Assembly: GCA_963842525.1 (NCBI GenBank)
Contig: CAWJGT010000016.1
Location: forward strand, 1 to 11,773
Source of the DNA: an uncultured Holophagales bacterium
GTDB lineage: Bacteria; Acidobacteriota; Thermoanaerobaculia; Multivoradales; UBA5704
Direction of reading: 5' to 3'
Length of the DNA: 11,773 nt
In this document: piece after piece, positions 1-11,773 of the stretch
Layout: each line of letters begins with the position of its first letter
Position numbering within the stretch: the first letter of the stretch is position 1
Translations under genes and position numbers: made by a program
The notes under the pieces: model-generated
Databases searched by the model: none
What the model was told of the DNA's origin: nothing
What the model saw: only the letters and a program-made list of their open reading frames with translations

Positions 1-25
1 ATGCGGCTTGCTCCTCCAAAAGGTC

Positions 26-696
26 ATGACGAACGAATCTCCCTACCGCGGCGTCCTCCTCGATCTCGACGGCACCCTGGTCGACAGCAACGACGCGCAC
101 GCCCGCGCCTGGCACGAGGCCCTGGCCGGGAACGGCTACGACCTCCCCTACGAAGAGATCCGGCGGCTGATCGGCATGGGCGGCGACAACCTCCTCCCGG
201 CGGCGATCGGAGTCGACAAGGAGTCCGAGATCGGCCAGAGGGTCAGCGAGCGCCGCGGCCAGATCTTCAAGGAGCGCTACCTGCCGCACCTCCGCCCCTT
301 CCCCGGAGCCCGCGACCTCGTCAAGCGGATGCGGGACGACGAGCTCCGCCTCGCCGTGGCTACCTCGGCACCCGAGGACGAAGCCCACGCGCTGATCGAG
401 ATCGCCGGCATCGCGGACCTGCTGGACGAGCGCACCTCGGCAGACGACGCCGAGAAGCTCGAAGCCCGATCCGGACATCATCCACGCCGCCCTCGACGAG
501 CTCGGGCTCCCCAAGGAGGAAGCCCTCCTCCTCGGCGATACGCCGTACGACATCGGCGCGGCCGGCAAGGCCGGGATCGGCACCATCGCCTTCCGCTGCG
601 GCGGCTTCTCCGACCAGGACCTCGCCGGGGCCATCGCCATCTACGACGGCCCGGCCGACCTGCTGGCGCGGTACGAGGAGTCGCCGCTGGCCGTGA
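26..696 (+). CDS. HAD-superfamily hydrolase (class IA, phosphoglycolate phosphatase-like), frameshifted at ~458
   Basis: ATG at 26 gives motif I ([11 protein letters not shown]) and motif II (AVATS) in frame +2. After one extra base at ~458, frame +3 continues [39 protein letters not shown], which holds motifs III (KPxP) and IV (GDTxxD), then ...[16 protein letters not shown]. The nearest plausible stop, TGA 694-696, is out of frame, so the end is approximate. Confidence 0.88.
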
Positions 697-733
697 AGGT
701 CAGGGCTACCTGGCTCGAGATAGTCTCTCTGCC

Positions 734-1207
734 ATGGAATCGCCGACCGCCACCTTCACCCTGCGCTCCATCGGCATCATCCATTCTCCCTTTACGGCGA
801 CTCACGAGATCCCCAAGGGGCTGGGGGTGGAGCACCGCGAGGAAGGGACGATCGAGATCTTCCCGGAGTACGAGGACGGTCTCCAGGATATCGAGGGGTT
901 CTCGCACCTCTATGTGCTCTGGGTCTTCGATCGCGCCGGTGCTCTCCCGCAGACCTGGGTGGGTACACCGCCGGCGGATAACCGGCCGCACGGCGTCTTC
1001 GCCACCCGCTCGCCACGCCGGCCGAATCCGCTGGCGCTCACGGTCGTCGAGCTTCTCCGCCGCGAAGGCCGCGTCCTCTCCGTCCGCGGCGTCGACATGC
1101 TGGACGGCACGCCGGTGCTCGATCTCAAACCCTACCTCTCAAGCATCCCCGAGGAACAGCTCCGCCGCGGCTGGCTGGCGGAAGCCGAGGCGCGCAGGAA
1201 GCCCTGA
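734..1207 (+). CDS. trmO: tRNA (N6-threonylcarbamoyladenosine(37)-N6)-methyltransferase TrmO (TsaA/YaeB family)
   Basis: ATG at 734 ([20 protein letters not shown]). Family motifs [33 protein letters not shown] and [16 protein letters not shown] are present. It is the C-terminal part of the 8..1207 ORF. Confidence 0.93.
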
Positions 1208-1227
1208 AGACGGGAACTCGCCTGGGC

Positions 1228-1248
1228 GCCGTGTCCTGTAGGCATGCT
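1228..1248. repeat. Solitary degenerate piece of the 42-bp array unit
   Basis: gccgtgtcctgtaggca-tgct aligns with gccgtttcctgtagtcaatgct of array unit 1 at 19 of 22 columns. The G variant (tcctgtaggca) occurs in unit 4. Confidence 0.55.
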
Positions 1249-1278
1249 GGTCAACGCCTGCCGCTGGCGCCCCCAAGG

Positions 1279-1284
1279 TATAAT
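1279..1284 (+). promoter_or_regulatory. Candidate sigma70 -10 element (TATAAT) upstream of the small ORF at 1378
   Basis: Perfect TATAAT in a GC-rich intergenic stretch; no clear -35 element seen. Confidence 0.35.
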
Positions 1285-1377
1285 TCTGCCGGGCTGGCCG
1301 GGCTAGGGGGGCACCGGATTCCTCCGGACGTCTGTCAGAGGCCCGCCCATCTCAGGAATGAGGAGGAGGACTCAGAC

Positions 1378-3774: not shown

Positions 3775-5736
3775 CTAGCACCTGGGAGACTGTTGCGCCC
3801 CTCGACCGCTCCGCCCGGAACGACCAATCCGATTCCCTTCTTCCGCCTTCACAATAGGGAGATTTGAGAGATCTATTTCGACCCGGTCGTTAATCCTGAG
3901 CAATCCTAGGTCACAGAGGAGCCTGTTGACCGGATCCCTCCAGACGAGACCTTGAGACCAACCCTCCTCGTGGACGAAATAGAAGGGCACAGGAATCAGC
4001 TCAAGGATCTCAGCTCGGGATAAATAAAAGTTAACCGCAAACTTATCCAGCGTCTGCCACACATCAACGGCAGCCCCCGGCCGAAAGTGCACCGTAACCC
4101 GCGTACCGGTCCTCTTCGGTGGACCGGCTTCCTCGTCCGAAGCAGGCTTTTGATAGAGAACGCTTGGCTCCGGCCTGGCCAGCCGTCGTGCTACGAAATA
4201 CTTCGACGGTCCCTCGATCTGAATGTGGAGAGGATCGTATCCTTCCTGATGTGTCTCGATCTCGAAGCGATCTCCGACCAGGAAACAAGACAAGATGCCA
4301 ATGCCGAACTGTGAGCAGGCGTCGAGTTCTTTGCCGTGCTCCTGCAGACGCTGGCGCTCAGCATCGAACTCCGGCGAGCGGTAGTAGCTCCGACCGATGC
4401 GCAGGAAATACTGTTCGACGATGCGCTGCGACATGCCGACACCATTGTCCTGGAAAATGACCCGGGGATCATTTAGATCATCGGTGCGGTCCCAGACGAC
4501 AATCCTCGGCATGTAGGCGATGCCATTCACCTGCGTGTCCGCTTCTTTTCTTCGGCAGGCATCCAGAGCGTTCTGGAGGAGCTCGCGGAGGAAGAGACTC
4601 GGGTCGGGATAGAGGCTCTTGTCCATCAGGAGCGTGAGGATGTTCTCGTACTCGAGCTGGAACCGGAAGGCTCCCGCCACATAGCTCGGGTCCGCCATCC
4701 GGACCTTGTGGCGGTCCACCACTTGCTGCAGGAATAGCTTGTAACGCTCGGCCGTCGTCTGCGGCTTGTTCTCGACCAGATAACGACTCTGCCGGAGCTC
4801 GACGTCGATCCAGTCGAGGAATTCATGGACGGCGACATAGAAGACTGGGTACGTGCAGGGGATGTCGAAGGCCACCTGCGTGGGCGTGATCACATAGCCT
4901 TTCACCTGAAGATGCTTGTTCCACTCCTCCCAGGACTTCGGCTCGGAGAAGTCGAGGTGCTGGAAGACGGCTAGGGGAGTCCTGGACCGGTCGAAGTCGA
5001 GAATGTCCGCAAGCCGGAGGATGCAGGCAAGATATTGGAGGTTTACCCGCACGACATAGAGCCGGGTGTCGTCGTCGAGCCAAGCCACGGCCTTCCCGGG
5101 ATGATGGGCGTCGTTGCTCTCTTCAACACCCCACGCGTGGCTTTCGCAGAGGCGGGCGAGGTCGTCCGCGAAGTCGATCTCCCGGTACTGGAACCGGCCG
5201 GCCAGGTGTCTTTCCATGAACTGCCGGACCCGCTCCGGATGGAGACGGCGGTAGTACTCGGCGAGCAGGGCGTCCTCGATCGCCCGGGCGCGGGGCTCGT
5301 TGCCGGCCGAGCGAGCCTCGTCGATCGCCTTGTTCCGGTCGGCGTGGCCTTCTACCTGAAAGCGCCGGAAGCCCTGGGAGAGGAAGGTCTCCGCCTTCTC
5401 GTGATCGGTCACCACCATGCCGATGTCGTGGAGGAGCGCCGAAAGGAGAAGGAAGGTGATCTCAAGCGCGTTCAGCTTCGCGAGGGTCTCAGGCGGGAGG
5501 ATCTCCCCCATCCGGGTAATCACGTTCTTGCAGTGGCGGATGTCGTGGACGGTGTACTGCCGGAAGGTCACCGGGATCAGGGCCATGGCCGGCCCGACGG
5601 CGTCGGCGACTTCGTTCACCAGCCCTTTCAGGCGGACAACGTCCGTGGCCGCTATCGAATCCCGGCCGGCGGCGTTATCCAGCTCCTGATAGAGCGGCAA
5701 GTCGGAGATCAGGTCCGCGAATTCGGCCAAGGGCAC
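3775..5736 (-). CDS. HD-domain (HD-CE type) + HSP90-like GHKL ATPase fusion protein, probably C-terminally truncated
   Basis: HD motifs: YTVHDIRH, ALLHDIGM, RRLHPER, ESHAW, LRLADILD, WNKH. GHKL motifs: LYPDPSLFLRELLQNALDA, DNGVGMS, SQFGIGILSCF, GTRVTV. The start may be TTG 5730, which is better spaced from the GGAGG RBS than GTG 5736. Confidence 0.88.
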   Translation of the reverse strand: MPLAEFADLISDLPLYQELDNAAGRDSIAATDVVRLKGLVNEVADAVGPAMALIPVTFRQYTVHDIRHCKNVITRMGEILPPETLAKLNALEITFLLLSALLHDIGMVVTDHEKAETFLSQGFRRFQVEGHADRNKAIDEARSAGNEPRARAIEDALLAEYYRRLHPERVRQFMERHLAGRFQYREIDFADDLARLCESHAWGVEESNDAHHPGKAVAWLDDDTRLYVVRVNLQYLACILRLADILDFDRSRTPLAVFQHLDFSEPKSWEEWNKHLQVKGYVITPTQVAFDIPCTYPVFYVAVHEFLDWIDVELRQSRYLVENKPQTTAERYKLFLQQVVDRHKVRMADPSYVAGAFRFQLEYENILTLLMDKSLYPDPSLFLRELLQNALDACRRKEADTQVNGIAYMPRIVVWDRTDDLNDPRVIFQDNGVGMSQRIVEQYFLRIGRSYYRSPEFDAERQRLQEHGKELDACSQFGIGILSCFLVGDRFEIETHQEGYDPLHIQIEGPSKYFVARRLARPEPSVLYQKPASDEEAGPPKRTGTRVTVHFRPGAAVDVWQTLDKFAVNFYLSRAEILELIPVPFYFVHEEGWSQGLVWRDPVNRLLCDLGLLRINDRVEIDLSNLPIVKAEEGNRIGRSGRSGRGAQQSPRC

Positions 5737-6521: not shown

Positions 6522-7812
6522 TCAGACCGCCACACCCTGGAATACGAGAGGGATACTTCGGTCCAGCCCCGGTCCCACTTCTGCCACCTCTGCCAAAGGC
6601 GTTCGATCGCTGCCGCCCCGGGGGATCGCAAACTCATCGAGGCCCTGGTCCAGGACGGCTGCGAAGCGATCCAACTGCTCCTTGCGGTGGCCTGCCGTGA
6701 TCGATACACGCAGGCGCGCCGAGCCTTTGGGGACGACCGGATGCGGAATCCCCTGCACGAAAAAGCCGCGCTGCTGGCAGTAGTGCGCGAGCCGGAATGC
6801 CGCCCAGTCCTCGCCACAGATCACAGGGAAGATTGCGGTCGTGCTGTCGATGTACGAAAGACCGATCGTCCGGAGAGCCGCCGCGAAATGACGAATGTTG
6901 TCGTGCAGACGTGTGAGACGCTCGGGCTCGTCCTGGATCACGCGCAGAGCTTCGAGCGCCGCGGCGGCAGCGGGTGGAGGCAGCGCGGCGGAATAGATGA
7001 AGCCGCGTCCCTGCACTGCGAGGAAGTCGCAGAGGCGGCGACTGCCCGCGATATACCCGCCAGCGCTGGGAATCGCTTTGCTCAGGGTGCCCATCTTGAT
7101 GTCGATGGTGTCCGCCGGGAGGCCAAAATGCTCCTCGATGCCACGGCCGCTCGCTCCGAGCATCCCGAGCGAGTGCGCCTCGTCCACCATGAGGAGGGCG
7201 CCGTGCCGCCGGCAGAGCCGGCTCGATCTCCGGCAGGTTGGCAATGTCGCCGTCCATGCTAAAAACGGCATCCACGACCACTAGCTTGCGCCCTGGATGG
7301 GCACGGTCGGCCAGGATGGCGGCGAGGTGCTCCATGTCGTTGTGCCGGAACCTGACGAGCCTGGCGCGGGAAAGGCCGCAGCCGTCCACGATGGATGCAT
7401 GATCGAGCTTGTCGCAGATGACGGTGTCGTGGCGTCCGACGACGCTGGTGATGGCGGAGACGTTGGCCGCGTAGCCGCTGGTGAAGGTGATGGCGGACTC
7501 AGTGCCCTTGAAGCGCGCCAGCTCCGCCTCGAGCTCCCGATGGATGGCCAACGTGCCCGCGAGGAGCCGCGCGCCATGAGCACCGGTGCCGTAGTGGGAG
7601 ATGGCGTCCTGCGTGGCCCGATTGATCCGCGGATGACCGTTGAGCGCGAGATATGAGTAGCTGCCGAACAGGATCATGTCGCCATGCTCGGCGACCTCGA
7701 CGTGCTCGTCTTCTTGGTAGGTCTCAATGGCCTGCTGATAGAAAAAAAGGCCTTCCTCGCGAAGCCTCGCGATAGGCCAGAACGGCTCGAATGGGTGAGT
7801 GTGGGTGTGCAT
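6522..7812 (-). CDS. PLP-dependent alpha-oxoamine synthase (BioF/Kbl/serine palmitoyltransferase family), frameshifted at ~7224
   Basis: First frame: FGSYSYLAL, GARLLAGT, FTSGYAAN, DKLDHASIVDG, FRHND, VFSMDGD. After one extra base at 7224: VDEAHSLG, PLP-lysine motif GTLSKA, IYSAALPP, ARLRVSITAGH. RBS ggagg precedes ATG 7812. Confidence 0.92.
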
Positions 7813-7958: not shown

Positions 7959-8069
7959 GGCCTTCCAGCTCCAACTCCGGTCACCGTCTTGGAGCAGGAC
8001 CGCCAGCGCCCGCAACGCCTGTACGCCACGCCCATGACAGGAGGGCTGTGGCAGGTCGACTTCAGGTGA
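7959..8069 (+). pseudogene. C-terminal remnant of a BNR/WD40-like beta-propeller repeat protein
   Basis: Frame +3 reads GLPAPTPVTVLEQDRQRPQRLYATPMTGGLWQVDFR*, fitting the GLP..V..L..D...P..LYA....GGLW blade pattern. There is no start or upstream gene body. Confidence 0.55.
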
Positions 8070-8664
8070 CCCGCTGGAGAGGAGTGCCGGTTGCGGCGGC
8101 TTCGCGCAGCTTGGGATCGGGCTTCAGGCCGAAGCCGTCGGCCATGCGCGGGAAGTAGTTGAAGATGGCCACGATGTGGGCGACTTCGAGGAGGCCCTGC
8201 TCGTCGAGCCCGGCATCGCGTAGCGGCTGCCAGTCCTCGGCGGTCATCTCCGTCGGGGTCAGGGTCATCTTCTCGGCGAGCGTGCAGAGTGCCCGCTGCC
8301 GCGGAGTGAGGTGGGCCAGCTCGCGCCAGCGGCGCCGCTTGATCGCCTCGACCAGCTCCCGATCGTTGTGCTCGACACGCAGAAACTCTGCGTGAGATTC
8401 CGTTCAGTACTCGCAGTCCTGGGCCGCCGAGGCGACCGCGGCGAGCATCTCCCGTTCAGCACGGTCGAGCGCTCCGGGCGCGAACATCATCTCGTAGAAC
8501 GCCGTCTGCAGGGCCTTGCCGATCCGCTCGTGCGCAGCGAGCAGGCGGGACATCCCGCCGATGAAACCGAAGTTGTAGGTCGGCTTCATACCGGACCCCT
8601 CCCTCCGGACGCGCATCTCCTCATCCGTGGGCAGGGTGATGAAGGGCTTCTGGTCGTCTGCCAT
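8062..8664 (-). CDS. AhpD/carboxymuconolactone decarboxylase-family peroxidase-related protein with an in-frame UGA (probable selenoprotein, CxxU)
   Basis: RBS aaggagg and ATG 8664. Reads ...LDRAEREMLAAVASAAQDCEY-[TGA 8406-8404, codon 87]-TESHAEFLRVEHNDRELVEAIKRRRWRELAHLTPRQRALCTLAEKMTLTP...VAHIVAIFNYFPRMADGFG. One frame of 200 aa joins the 8404..8697 and 8062..8268 ORFs. Confidence 0.9.
8371..8403 (-). promoter_or_regulatory. Candidate bacterial SECIS hairpin
   Basis: mRNA after the UGA: ACGGAAUCU-CACGCAGA-GUU-UCUGCGUG-UCGAG. Perfect 8-bp stem (8376-8394); the apical loop begins with G, 18 nt after the UGA. Confidence 0.65.
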
Positions 8665-8722
8665 CCCGGCCTCCTTCGCTGCGAAAGCTCGCCGCATTGT
8701 ACCCCGGCCGGACAGCCCCCCC

Positions 8723-8778
8723 GGGCTTCAAGCCCCCTTCAGGGGCGCTGTTCCTAGCCCGGCGATTCATCGCCGGGC
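8723..8778. repeat. Intergenic REP-like palindromes or terminator-like hairpins
   Basis: gcccggcgat-tc-atcgccgggc (8757-8778, 10-bp arms), cccc-ttca-gggg (8734-8745) and gggctt-c-aagccc (8723-8735). Confidence 0.55.
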
Positions 8779-8800: not shown

Positions 8801-9545
8801 TCACTTCCTTCGCAGGAACCGCCGCACGACCTGGTGGATCAGGTGGGCGTCGCCGGCGGTGTCGGGTCCGAAGGCGATGCCCGCGTAGGTGCCTTCCAGC
8901 CAGGTGATGGTCCCGATCACCCGCAGGAGGGGGGGCTCGCCCGGGAGCCCCAGGGTGAAGCGGACCGGCTGCTGCGTTTCCCAGGCGTCCGGCGCTCCGG
9001 AGATGCCGATGCCCCCGAGCGAGACGTTCTCCAGTTGGACCGGGAGCACGGTGCCGTCGTCAAGCGTGATCTCGGCGTCGGCTCCCAGGTGGATGCGCAC
9101 GTCCCGCTGCCCGGCGAGCCCCAGGAGGGCGGAAACGCTCATCCCGTGCCGGCGGATCACCTCGGCGCGGAACTTGAGCTCCACCATGGGGTTGTCCGCC
9201 AAAAGGGTGATCAGGTCGCCCCGGTCGATGCGCAGCAGGACCGTGGGCAGGGCGGTGCGCGCCGAGGCGATCCGCCGCGCCTTGTCGTTGAGCAGCCCCA
9301 TCTCACCGAAGAAGCCGCCGGCCTCCAGGCGCGCCAGCACCTCCATCGGCTTGCCCTTCTCCTCCCGGAAGACGGTCACCAGCCCCTCCCGGACCAGATA
9401 GAAGGCATCGACCGGGTCACCCTCCCGGTAGACGATCTGCTTCGGCGGGAGCGACTCCTCGCGAGCCATCGCCTCCAGCCGCTGGAGCTGGTCTTCCGGG
9501 AAGCTCCTGGAAGAGCGCCACCTTCCGCAGAAACTCTCTCAGCAA
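8801..9545 (-). CDS. Cyclic nucleotide-binding (cNMP/CAP_ED) domain + PilZ domain protein, frameshifted at ~9497
   Basis: TTG 9545 after ggagg gives (M)LREFLRKVALFQELP; after one extra base, EDQLQRLEAMAREES...IVYREGDPVDAFYLVREG...GGFFGEMGLL...RIASARTA (cNMP). The C-terminus QRDVRIH...LENVSLGGIGI...VIGTITW...AGIAF is PilZ-like. The start is uncertain (TTG 9564 is an alternative). Confidence 0.85.
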
Positions 9546-9665: not shown

Positions 9666-11773
9666 CTACTCCAGCTCGCGGATGAGGTCCGCGAGCTGGT
9701 CCCGCTCGCGCGGATCGATCTCCAGGGTGAGGGCACGGCGGAAGCAGCGCAGGGCGTTGGGACGGTCGTCCAGCGTCTCGTAATAGATCGCGCCCGCCGT
9801 CTTCCAGGCGTCCAGGCGGTTCGGCTGGAGGCGCAGGAGCTGCTCGTAGAGCTGCACGGCCTCCTGGTGCCGGCCGAGCTGGAAGGCGGCCTGGGCCGCG
9901 CTCTCCAGGGGTGAGGGGTCGAGGGGGCTCCGCCGCGCGGCCTCGCGGAAGTCGCGCAGCGCCTCGGCCGGCCGGCCGCTCTCGGCCTGGACTCCCCCGC
10001 GCGTCAGATAAACCTCGGCGGTGTGGCTCCCGGCCTCGACCGAAGCGTCGAGGAACCGCAAGGCACCCGCCCGGTCCCCCCGCCCGCGCAGCAGGCGTGC
10101 CAGGCTCACCGCCGCCTCTCCCAGGGTGGGATCAAGCTCCAGGGCGCGGCGGTACTCCGCCTCCGCCTCCTGCCGCCGTCCCAGGGCCAGCAGGCAGTCC
10201 GCGGCGCCGGCCACCGGGGTGGCCGACCTCCCGTTCTCCCGCTCCGCCCGCTGGTACAGGGCGAGCGCCGATTCGTGCCGCCCGGCCTGCTTCAGGCAGA
10301 AACCCGCCAGGTTGAGGGCAGGAACGTTGCGCGGGTCGCGGCGGACGACGTCCTGGAGCGCCGGCAGGGCCGCGGAGCACTTCCCCTGCTGCACGGTCGC
10401 CACGGCCGCGTCGAGGGCCCGCTTGACGTCCATCATCCGCCGCGGGTCCGGGAGCCCCTTCCCCACGGCGCCGCCGGACGATCCGCCGAGATAGCCGAGG
10501 CTCGCCAGCCGCTCCCGTTCCCCGGCGCTGAGGTCGGCGCCGGCGCGCACCTCGGCATCAAGGTCCTCGCCGGACTTCTTCAGGAGATCGCGCAGCCGCC
10601 GCTCCCAGAGCCGTAGCGCAGCCGGCTGCTGCGGCGCCAGGTCCTCGTCCTCCTCGGGATCGGAAGGAAGCTGGTAGAGGCTCCCCGTCGGCCCGTGAAC
10701 ATAGAGGAAGCGGTCGGTCGAGAGCGCCCGCAGTGGGTACCACTTGTAGGAGAAGAACGGCAGGAAGGCCTCGCTATAGCTCATCCGGTAGCAGCCTCCT
10801 CTGCCATGGAGGAGGGGGAGCAGATCCTCGCCGTCGAGCCCCGCGGGGGCCGGTCCGCCGGCGAGGGTGAGCAGCGTGGGCGCGACGTCGGCGGTCCGCA
10901 CCAGGCAGTCCACGCTGCGGCCGCCCGGGATGCCGGGGCCGGCGAGGAGCAGCGGCACCCGCCGCGCCCCGCCATAGGGTAACAGCCCGTGCTCCTCCTC
11001 GCCATGCTCGCCGAGCATCTCGCCATGGTCTGCGACCACCACGACGGCGGCGTCCTTGGGCAGGCCCGCCAGGAGGCGGCCGATCTGCTCGTCCATGAAG
11101 GCGATCTCGCCGTCGTAGAGGCGGTGCGGCCCGGTCGCGGCATCGGCGAAACGGCTGGGCGGCCGGTACTCCCGGTGCGGATCGAAATAGTGCACCCAGA
11201 GGAAGAAGGGGGCGCGCAGCTTCCCGGCGGCGGCCAGGGCGGTATCGGTCGCCGCCTCGGCGGTGCGCTCGCTGACCTCGGTGCCCTGGGCATAGCCCGC
11301 TCCCAGGTCGTCGTCGTAGAGGCGGAAGCCCTGGGCGAGGCCGTGCCGGCGCGCCAGGACCACGGCCGAGACCACGGCGGCAGTGTCCCAGCCGCGGGCC
11401 GCCAGCCGCTCGGCCACGGTCTCGAAGCGGCCGGCGAGCGTGAAGGTGCCGTTGTCCCGCACTCCATGCCGGGGCGGATAGAGGCCGGTCAGCAGCGTGG
11501 CATGGCTCGGCAGGGTCAAGGGCGCCGCCGTGTCGCAGCGCGAGAAGCGGGCGCCGCGCGCGGCCAGGGCGTCCAGGACGGGCGTCCGCGCGTGGGGCCA
11601 GCCCCAGGCCCCGAGGTGGTCGGCGCGGGTCGTGTCGAGGGTGATCAGGACCACGCTGCGGGCGGCCGGCGGCGGTGCGTGTCTGGCCTGCCGGACCGGA
11701 GCGGCCTCCGCCAGGAACGCGGCGCAGGCTGCGGCAAAAAAAACCCACGCGGCCGCGGCTCGTTTTGGCCTCC
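9666..11773 (-). CDS. Secreted sulfatase-like (alkaline phosphatase superfamily) hydrolase with C-terminal TPR repeats; 5' partial
   Basis: VLITLDTTRADHLG, APLTLPSHATLLTGLYP, FFLWVHYFDPH, YDGEIAFMD and ADHGE, followed by TPR-like repeats (YRRALELDP, YEQLLRLQP, FRRALTLE). The frame stays open upstream of 11654 to the window edge through signal-peptide-like RPKRAAAAWVFFAAACAAFLAEA. Confidence 0.92.
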   Translation of the reverse strand, partial: RPKRAAAAWVFFAAACAAFLAEAAPVRQARHAPPPAARSVVLITLDTTRADHLGAWGWPHARTPVLDALAARGARFSRCDTAAPLTLPSHATLLTGLYPPRHGVRDNGTFTLAGRFETVAERLAARGWDTAAVVSAVVLARRHGLAQGFRLYDDDLGAGYAQGTEVSERTAEAATDTALAAAGKLRAPFFLWVHYFDPHREYRPPSRFADAATGPHRLYDGEIAFMDEQIGRLLAGLPKDAAVVVVADHGEMLGEHGEEEHGLLPYGGARRVPLLLAGPGIPGGRSVDCLVRTADVAPTLLTLAGGPAPAGLDGEDLLPLLHGRGGCYRMSYSEAFLPFFSYKWYPLRALSTDRFLYVHGPTGSLYQLPSDPEEDEDLAPQQPAALRLWERRLRDLLKKSGEDLDAEVRAGADLSAGERERLASLGYLGGSSGGAVGKGLPDPRRMMDVKRALDAAVATVQQGKCSAALPALQDVVRRDPRNVPALNLAGFCLKQAGRHESALALYQRAERENGRSATPVAGAADCLLALGRRQEAEAEYRRALELDPTLGEAAVSLARLLRGRGDRAGALRFLDASVEAGSHTAEVYLTRGGVQAESGRPAEALRDFREAARRSPLDPSPLESAAQAAFQLGRHQEAVQLYEQLLRLQPNRLDAWKTAGAIYYETLDDRPNALRCFRRALTLEIDPRERDQLADLIRELE

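Follow-up and report, generated by a model that had tools for sequence, protein, structure and literature searches.

AhpD-like proteins with a CxxU motif, in which selenocysteine (Sec, U) stands at the second position of the redox pair, form a described family of selenoproteins. They were first reported in 2005, when 27 AhpD-like CXXU sequences (COG2128) were given from the Sargasso Sea (PMC1088965), and they were among the most abundant families of the Global Ocean Sampling data, with 299 'AhpD-like 1' and 70 'AhpD-like 2' sequences (PMC2398784). Moreover, BSepDB devotes a page to them (PMC13326102), and 'AhpD-like protein, TIGR01926, CxxU' is among the selenoprotein families given in a 2026 review (PMC13188914). 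The gene described here lies on an 11,773-nt stretch of DNA (the window, meaning the whole stretch analyzed: positions 1 to 11,773 of contig CAWJGT010000016.1, assembly GCA_963842525.1) from a Thermoanaerobaculia-like acidobacterium. Its codon 87 is a UGA, which is very probably, at about 90%, read as Sec by canonical bacterial Sec insertion. A preliminary description of this DNA had proposed a hidden selenoprotein here and had stated that CxxU AhpD-like selenoproteins were already published, and the latter is borne out by three of the above sources (PMC1088965, PMC2398784, PMC13188914). As TIGR01926 CxxU has already been listed as a selenoprotein family, the gene adds to a known family and brings no new type of biology. 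The window copy has in common with that family the hidden Markov model, Sec at the second position, a bacterial selenocysteine insertion sequence (bSECIS) directly downstream, and the existence of homologues in a Cys form; there is no difference in kind, and its particular feature is the Thermoanaerobaculia-like host. A literature search joining 'Thermoanaerobaculia' with 'selenoprotein' found no report, and selenoproteins as such have been reported from Acidobacteria, Chloroflexi, and Actinobacteria (PMC1794560). The acidobacterial lineage may be new for the AhpD-like selenoprotein family, which would be an extension and not a surprise.

Three other described systems stand close to this gene. 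Deinococcus radiodurans DR_1765 (6K40) and the D. geothermalis protein 2OYO have the same length and the same E...CxxCxxxH site as the window protein. Unlike it, both carry Cys at the second position, so neither UGA nor a selenocysteine insertion sequence (SECIS) is needed. Loss of DR_1765 is reported to lead to H2O2 sensitivity, dependent on the CxxC cysteines (PMC8945050). The model NF041238 (AhpD_rel_CFYUT, 'alkylhydroperoxidase-related (seleno)protein'), identified with 'hypothetical protein 1' of the Sargasso Sea (PMC13188914), has a related C-terminal domain with the motif C-F-Y-U-T, against C-E-Y-U-T here; its profile has 357 positions, whereas the window protein covers the C-terminal third only. 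Membership in NF041238 was rejected, with a score of 66.4 bits against a cut-off of 175 bits and a match to profile positions 215-343 of 357 only. Mycobacterium tuberculosis AhpD, the canonical AhpC reductase, shares the CMD/AhpD fold, where CMD stands for carboxymuconolactone decarboxylase, together with the Glu, the two redox residues, and the His. However, it is distant in sequence and has Cys instead of Sec, and no AhpC/lipoamide-system neighbor was seen at the loci studied here.

The reading frame, its UGA codon, and the hairpin

The frame 8697..8062 on the minus strand is open throughout except for one internal stop, TGA 8406..8404. Under translation table 11, it appears as two open reading frames (ORFs) in the same frame, 8404..8697 (-) and 8062..8268 (-), the latter counted from its first ATG. 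The preliminary description had recognized two ORFs of one frame separated by a single TGA, which the translation bears out; its strand had to be corrected, as the gene is on the minus strand. It had also given a product of 200 amino acids, and 200 codons are indeed counted from the ATG at 8664, with AAGGAGG 5 nt ahead of it. From this ATG, the TGA is codon 87, and the local motif reads C84-E-Y-*87-T-E-S-H91. Relatives were collected by a scan of 185,579 species genomes, in which 301 stretches matched. Of the 280 that could be confirmed, the best 80 (53-95% identity) were retained; counts over 81 given below refer to those best 80 loci and the window copy. The features of the gene are as follows.

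8062..8664, minus strand: coding sequence of the AhpD-like (TIGR01926) candidate selenoprotein, 200 codons including the predicted Sec87, plus the terminal TGA at 8064..8062
8676..8670, minus strand: Shine-Dalgarno-like AAGGAGG, read from the sequence, with a 5-nt spacer to the ATG at 8664
8449..8451, minus strand: Glu72 codon GAG, 11 residues ahead of Cys84; Glu in 81/81 copies
8413..8415, minus strand: Cys84 codon TGC, first position of CxxU, presumed resolving residue; Cys in 81/81 copies
8404..8406, minus strand: in-frame TGA, predicted Sec87; TGA in the 80/80 related loci and the window, aligned with Cys of homologues
8394..8376, minus strand: core hairpin of the predicted bacterial SECIS, a perfect 8-bp stem, CACGCAGA-GUU-UCUGCGUG
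8394..8387, 8386..8384, and 8383..8376, minus strand: 5' arm CACGCAGA, loop GUU, and 3' arm UCUGCGUG of this hairpin

The residues E72, C84, U87, and H91 are each invariant in 81/81 copies, and the AhpD-type site E-x11-C-x-x-[C/U]-x3-H is complete. For the definition of the E-x11-CxxC-x3-H motif and the roles of its residues, we assume what holds for M. tuberculosis AhpD. The TGA falls at the second Cys of the AhpD CxxCxxxH motif, as had been proposed: it aligns with C in the database homologues P0002, P0007, P0009, and P0011 and in 6K40 and 2OYO, whose CVYCAVSH and CLYCAVSH, respectively, correspond to CEY[U]TESH.

The read-through product (P0001) was analyzed with C in place of U. It is matched by Pfam CMD PF02627 (1.2e-13) and by NCBIfam TIGR01926, 'peroxidase-related enzyme', where it scores 124.3 bits (cut-off 81.8) and residues 9-185 cover profile positions 3-178 of 178. 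The best matches in a sequence search of the PDB were 6K40 (D. radiodurans 'AhpD', 9.3e-28) and 2OYO (3.8e-24). The AlphaFold2 model, built from a 17-sequence alignment, is all-helical with ten helices (predicted local distance difference test 91.1, predicted template modeling score 0.88). Its top Foldseek matches were 6K40, 2PFX, 2OYO, 3C1L, and 2PRR, with template modeling (TM) scores of 0.73-0.86 and a probability of 1.00; 6K40 was the best fold match, with TM 0.78/0.84 and 33% identity. More distant matches were the debrominase Bmp8 (6OHJ/6OHI, TM 0.77/0.82, E ~1e-5) and sestrin. From this model and these matches, neither half of the gene alone makes up the AhpD fold. Judged from its sequence, the gene is a single 200-residue AhpD-like thiol/selenol oxidoreductase of TIGR01926 and of the COG2128 type. 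The 'peroxidase' label of the preliminary description stands as far as AhpD-like family membership is concerned, and the peroxidase function itself is presumptive.

The hairpin begins 9 nt past the UGA, and the G of its loop is the 18th nucleotide after the UGA, with 17 nt between them. The perfect 8-bp hairpin, the G-initiated loop, and the distance of 18 nt named in the preliminary description were all found in the sequence. The same nucleotides also code for His91-Ala-Glu-Phe-Leu-Arg-Val97. In the bSECIS model of the 2026 review, the loop has 3-9 nt, the stem has 4-16 bp, and 16-37 nt separate the UGA from the loop (PMC13188914); one of the first two nucleotides of the loop is a G, mostly with G or U after it, and the minimum free energy (MFE) is -7.5 kcal/mol or lower (PMC13188914). 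The window hairpin agrees with the model on all four counts, with a 3-nt loop GUU, an 8-bp stem, a spacing of 17 nt, and -10.8 kcal/mol for its 19-nt core. Perfect 8-bp hairpins with loops of 3-9 nt occur at three distinct sites (six register hits) per strand of the window, and the chance that one starts within 22 nt after a given site is approximately 1%. The minus strand has 131 TGA triplets, of which only two precede such a hairpin; the other one is the true stop of the neighboring gene at 8803. As such evidence from a single sequence is only suggestive, the case beyond chance rests on the comparative data.

Conservation of the TGA, the downstream half, and the hairpin

The codon aligned to residue 87 was TGA in 80/80 loci. 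The preliminary description had left open TGA or Cys for homologues at this column, and both were found, with TGA in the 80/80 genome loci and Cys in P0002, P0007, P0009, and P0011. The loci carry nine phylum labels in all. Acidobacteriota (50), Binatota (10), Chloroflexota (8), and Thermomicrobiota (4) are the larger groups; Vulcanimicrobiota and Actinomycetota have 2 each, Pseudomonadota, Myxococcota, and Thermodesulfobacteriota have 1 each, and 1 locus is unlabeled. The nearest relative (L001), at 95% identity, is from Thermoanaerobaculia. Within single metagenome-assembled genomes (MAGs), two paralogues (L009/L010) or three (L015/L032/L047) were present, with the TGA and the hairpin in every copy. 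In the gene tree, which was made by a quick method with support from the Shimodaira-Hasegawa-like approximate likelihood ratio test only, the 50 Acidobacteriota copies formed one clade (99), and the other phyla were intermixed on poorly supported branches. The gene tree gave no sign of a recent inter-phylum transfer into the acidobacterial lineage.

After the TGA, the frame remained open for 106-123 codons in 81/81 copies. The median ratio of nonsynonymous to synonymous substitution rates (dN/dS) against the window copy was 0.232 for residues 98-190 and 0.265 for residues 27-86. Because the downstream dN/dS is like the upstream one, with purifying selection in both, the second half is translated. 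Decay of the downstream half, named beforehand as a sign that would speak against recoding, was not seen (dN/dS of 0.23 vs. 0.27 upstream). Moreover, the catalytic His91 and 24 invariant residues are located downstream of the TGA. The terminator of the gene itself was TGA in 59/81 copies, including the window, TAG in 17, and TAA in 4, and one copy ran off the contig end.

The database proteins are consistent with a frame that gene callers break at this codon. The protein search gave 67 homologues among 747 candidates, and 47/67 were 110-156 amino acids long, covering just 46-59% of the query. All 10 half-length homologues that were aligned start no more than 6 residues after the U column, and all 3 aligned N-terminal pieces finish in ...AAQDCEY. 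Ten near-full-length homologues were also aligned. At the U column, four have C (P0002, P0007, P0009, and P0011), four have W (P0003, P0004, P0005, and P0008), one has G (P0006), and one is garbled. The W and G residues suggest metagenome contigs that were gene-called under code 4 or 25, and the Sec codon may itself bias the automatic choice of code on short contigs. Of the NCBI entries, the few with a name go under 'hypothetical protein' or 'carboxymuconolactone decarboxylase family protein, partial'.

In the case of the hairpin, the 19-nt core was identical in 63/81 sequences, ten had GCA->GCG (an A-U pair becoming G-U), and eight had one to few changes. No indels were found in the interval from the UGA to the hairpin among the 81 sequences, and the loop G-U-U was invariant in 81/81. 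Because the hairpin encodes the invariant peptide H-A-E-F-L-R-V, the synonymous sites are the informative ones. Codon entropy was determined at degenerate columns with at least 90% conservation of the amino acid. Its mean was 0.19 bits at residues 91-97 (n=7) vs. 1.06 bits at the other 67 columns (Mann-Whitney p = 2.2e-5), and residues 91-97 had the lowest value among all seven-column runs. Similarly, the median proportion of synonymous differences (pS) was 0.13 in the hairpin vs. 0.47 in the flanks. The codons fixed in the hairpin region are those otherwise avoided in these high-GC genes, as listed below.

Ser90: fixed codon TCT in 66/81 copies; gene-wide use 5.3%
Ala92: fixed codon GCA in 69/79 copies; gene-wide use 4.4%
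Phe94: fixed codon TTT in 78/81 copies; gene-wide use 10.8%
Arg96: fixed codon CGT in 79/81 copies; gene-wide use 6.6%

Glu93, which gives the loop G, was GAG in 81/81 copies, whereas GAA was used 11-41 times at other invariant Glu columns. Across the copies, 98.6% of 496 stem cells were paired and 7 were unpaired, and 13 changes were wobbles on one side only; the single double change, A-U -> G-C, was in L059. The preliminary description had looked for a hairpin kept with compensatory changes. The first part stood, as the hairpin was kept in all related loci, with 63/81 cores identical and pairing intact after most changes; for compensation, there was only this one double change, and covariation did not reach significance.

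Proposed decoding of the UGA and possible activity of the product

In the proposed mechanism, UGA-87 would lie under the ribosome while the 8-bp hairpin 9 nt downstream is bound by SelB with GTP and Sec-tRNA(Sec), as in the canonical bacterial process. The loop GUU would present the G-U recognized by bacterial SelB, and Sec would be inserted in place of termination. By homology, the active site E72-x11-C84-x-x-U87-x3-H91 would be placed at a helix N-terminus. Sec87 takes the position of the second Cys of AhpD, which we take to be the nucleophile, as in M. tuberculosis AhpD. Sec87 would attack a peroxide or an oxidized partner protein, Cys84 would resolve the intermediate to a selenenylsulfide with a proton relay via His91 and Glu72, and a thiol reductant would recycle the enzyme. 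By analogy with DR_1765, the product may have peroxidase or peroxiredoxin (Prx) reductase activity.

Of the Sec machinery, a tRNA-Sec was found near one relative. ARAGORN detected 8 tRNAs on the flanks of the 80 loci, one of which was a tRNA-Sec in L080, a Dehalococcoidia chromosome. It lies at 1226-1322 (+), 8.9 kb upstream of the AhpD-like homologue, and Rfam RF01852 confirmed it with a score of 69.8 bits (gathering score 47). By NCBIfam, selA, selB, and selD were absent among the 15 ORFs around this tRNA-Sec. At 1.2 kb from it lies a ResA-like thiol-disulfide oxidoreductase, which weakly matches NF041054, the 'WAxxUGC' selenoprotein model.

Several results weigh against reading codon 87 as Sec. 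In the window, no sel gene and no tRNA was found within its 11.8 kb. A tblastn search of the regions flanking the 80 loci, in which the queries were SelB, SelD, and the C-terminal 381 amino acids of SelA from E. coli K-12, found no sel genes; the sole match, to the SelD query in L069, was rejected because it is ThiL and not SelD. No conserved neighbor was found within +/-4 kb of the 81 loci, where the largest cluster included 11/81 loci, and as no neighbor is conserved, the context gives no partner or substrate. As for the RNA, the 81-nt region was no more stable than its dinucleotide shuffles (z = 0.39; 126/200 folded at least as well), and an Rfam scan of the window at E <= 10 put no family on the hairpin. 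At least 6 of the 8 pairs appeared in the MFE fold of the 51-nt segment in only 68/81 copies. To some extent, the nucleotides are conserved simply because the peptide H-A-E-F-L-R is invariant. Lastly, stem covariation was not significant, as 91/500 shuffles reached the observed score, because the stem hardly varies. Thus, the structural argument rests on the synonymous-site constraint.

Among the alternatives, the one that survives best retains Sec and concerns the chemistry: the selenoprotein would be neither a peroxidase nor an AhpC reductase and would carry out other reductive chemistry, e.g., dehalogenation. The Foldseek match to the debrominase Bmp8 (6OHJ/6OHI), the lack of a conserved AhpC/Prx neighbor, and the naming of TIGR01926 members only as 'peroxidase-related' are consistent with it. 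However, the full E-x11-CxxC-x3-H relay is kept, and the closest characterized homologue, DR_1765, is reported to protect against H2O2 in a CxxC-dependent manner (PMC8945050). This alternative is considered unlikely.

The other alternatives concern the decoding itself. For this acidobacterial lineage, a non-canonical decoder, such as a SelB*/tRNA-Cys-like system or an opal suppressor of the allo-tRNA type, or a second, selenium-sensing role of the hairpin that would explain its unusual freezing compared with bSECIS elements, is regarded as quite improbable; if true, either would give, in this gene family, a natural reporter of a novel way of recoding. Recoding of UGA-87 to Cys or another residue, in which the hairpin recruits selC* tRNA-Cys with SelB* or an allo-tRNA suppressor takes part, is held to be very improbable. 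For such recoding, it can be said that the window is acidobacterial, as are the reported allo-tRNA nonsense suppressors (nearest relative L001, 95% identity), that sel machinery is so far known from the tRNA-Sec of L080 and not from the window, and that selC* tRNA-Cys(UCA) beside a second selB has been reported in delta-proteobacteria (PMC5389517). However, that source names Firmicutes, Thermodesulfobacteria, Nitrospirae, and Proteobacteria, and not Acidobacteria, as carrying selC*, always beside a full Sec apparatus (PMC5389517). Moreover, the same UGA and hairpin recur under the nine phylum labels in agreement with the ordinary bSECIS model, the tRNA-Sec in L080 is a standard one, and insertion of Cys would offer no advantage over plain TGC, which some homologues use.

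That the TGA is a real stop, with the gene being a pseudogene or in fact two separate small genes, or that it stands for TGC/TGT through an error of sequencing or assembly, deserves next to no credence. Gene callers do split the gene, many database entries are half-length, and the assembly is imperfect, with the neighboring aminotransferase frameshifted near 7215-7230. However, the TGA is present in 80/80 independent assemblies, the downstream dN/dS (0.232) equals the upstream one (0.265), His91 and the 24 invariant residues are downstream, neither half alone folds as AhpD, and the hairpin is under synonymous constraint. The pseudogene or sequencing-error reading is excluded by the TGA conservation, the synonymous constraint, and the dN/dS. 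Equally negligible is the idea that all TGA codons are sense in the organism (Trp in table 4 or Gly in table 25) with no special mechanism: W in P0003, P0004, P0005, and P0008 and G in P0006 would fit it, but genome-wide reassignment is ruled out because TGA is also the terminator of the same gene, at a conserved length, in 59/81 copies, including the window. These high-GC genomes come from Acidobacteriota, Chloroflexota, and other phyla, which are not known to use TGA-reassigned codes. Thus, canonical insertion of Sec at codon 87 is the preferred reading.

Neighboring genes and meaning of the finding

The other genes in the window encode HAD/TrmO, DJ-1/PfpI, C-N hydrolase, HD-CE/HATPase, aminotransferase, cNMP-binding PilZ, and sulfatase-TPR proteins. 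The aminotransferase gene (class I/II; 6522-7812, minus strand), downstream of the selenoprotein gene, is split across two frames near 7215-7230: ORF 6634..7812 corresponds to Pfam Aminotran_1_2 positions 2-171 and ORF 6522..7271 to positions 169-360. It is either a frameshifted pseudogene or the result of an assembly indel, so the assembly is not taken to be error-free. A 653-amino-acid protein at 3775-5736 (minus strand) has an HD-CE domain (PF24391, 2.5e-54) and also matches HATPase_c_3, but weakly. The frame 2-1207 (plus strand), which runs off the 5' end, joins a HAD hydrolase (residues 15-151) with a TrmO N-terminal domain (residues 270-381); it represents either a gene fusion or the read-through of two genes. 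Two ORFs in other frames, 1..696 and 693..1241, overlap with it.

The one notable match in the Rfam scan of the window was a sub-threshold match to Acido-Lenti-1 at 8731-8777 on the minus strand (27.4 bits vs. a gathering score of 37, E = 0.0068). It follows the cNMP-binding/PilZ gene, whose stop (8801) is 24 nt away, and the start of the selenoprotein gene comes 67 nt after it. This element contains one of the three perfect 8-bp hairpins of the window. Its candidacy as a conserved leader of the selenoprotein gene was rejected, as it is absent at that position in relatives. Similar copies are scattered elsewhere, e.g., two in L017 approximately 3.2 kb downstream of the TGA, and the element is possibly a terminator or else a dispersed repeat. 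The third perfect hairpin, of at least 8 bp, is located at 9673-9697 on both strands, just past the stop of the sulfatase-TPR gene (9666), and is probably the terminator of that gene.

The practical value of the finding is in annotation, in that this gene, like its relatives, should be annotated as a single selenoprotein; this is a useful fix that raises no new recoding question. The SECIS core, with its frozen rare codons, illustrates cleanly how constraints on protein and RNA can overlap, and its conservation makes it a possible search pattern for the CxxU AhpD-like family. Among public MAGs, the known selenoprotein family now reaches Acidobacteriota, Binatota, Vulcanimicrobiota, and further labels, and the gene indicates that this Thermoanaerobaculia-like soil bacterium probably uses selenium.

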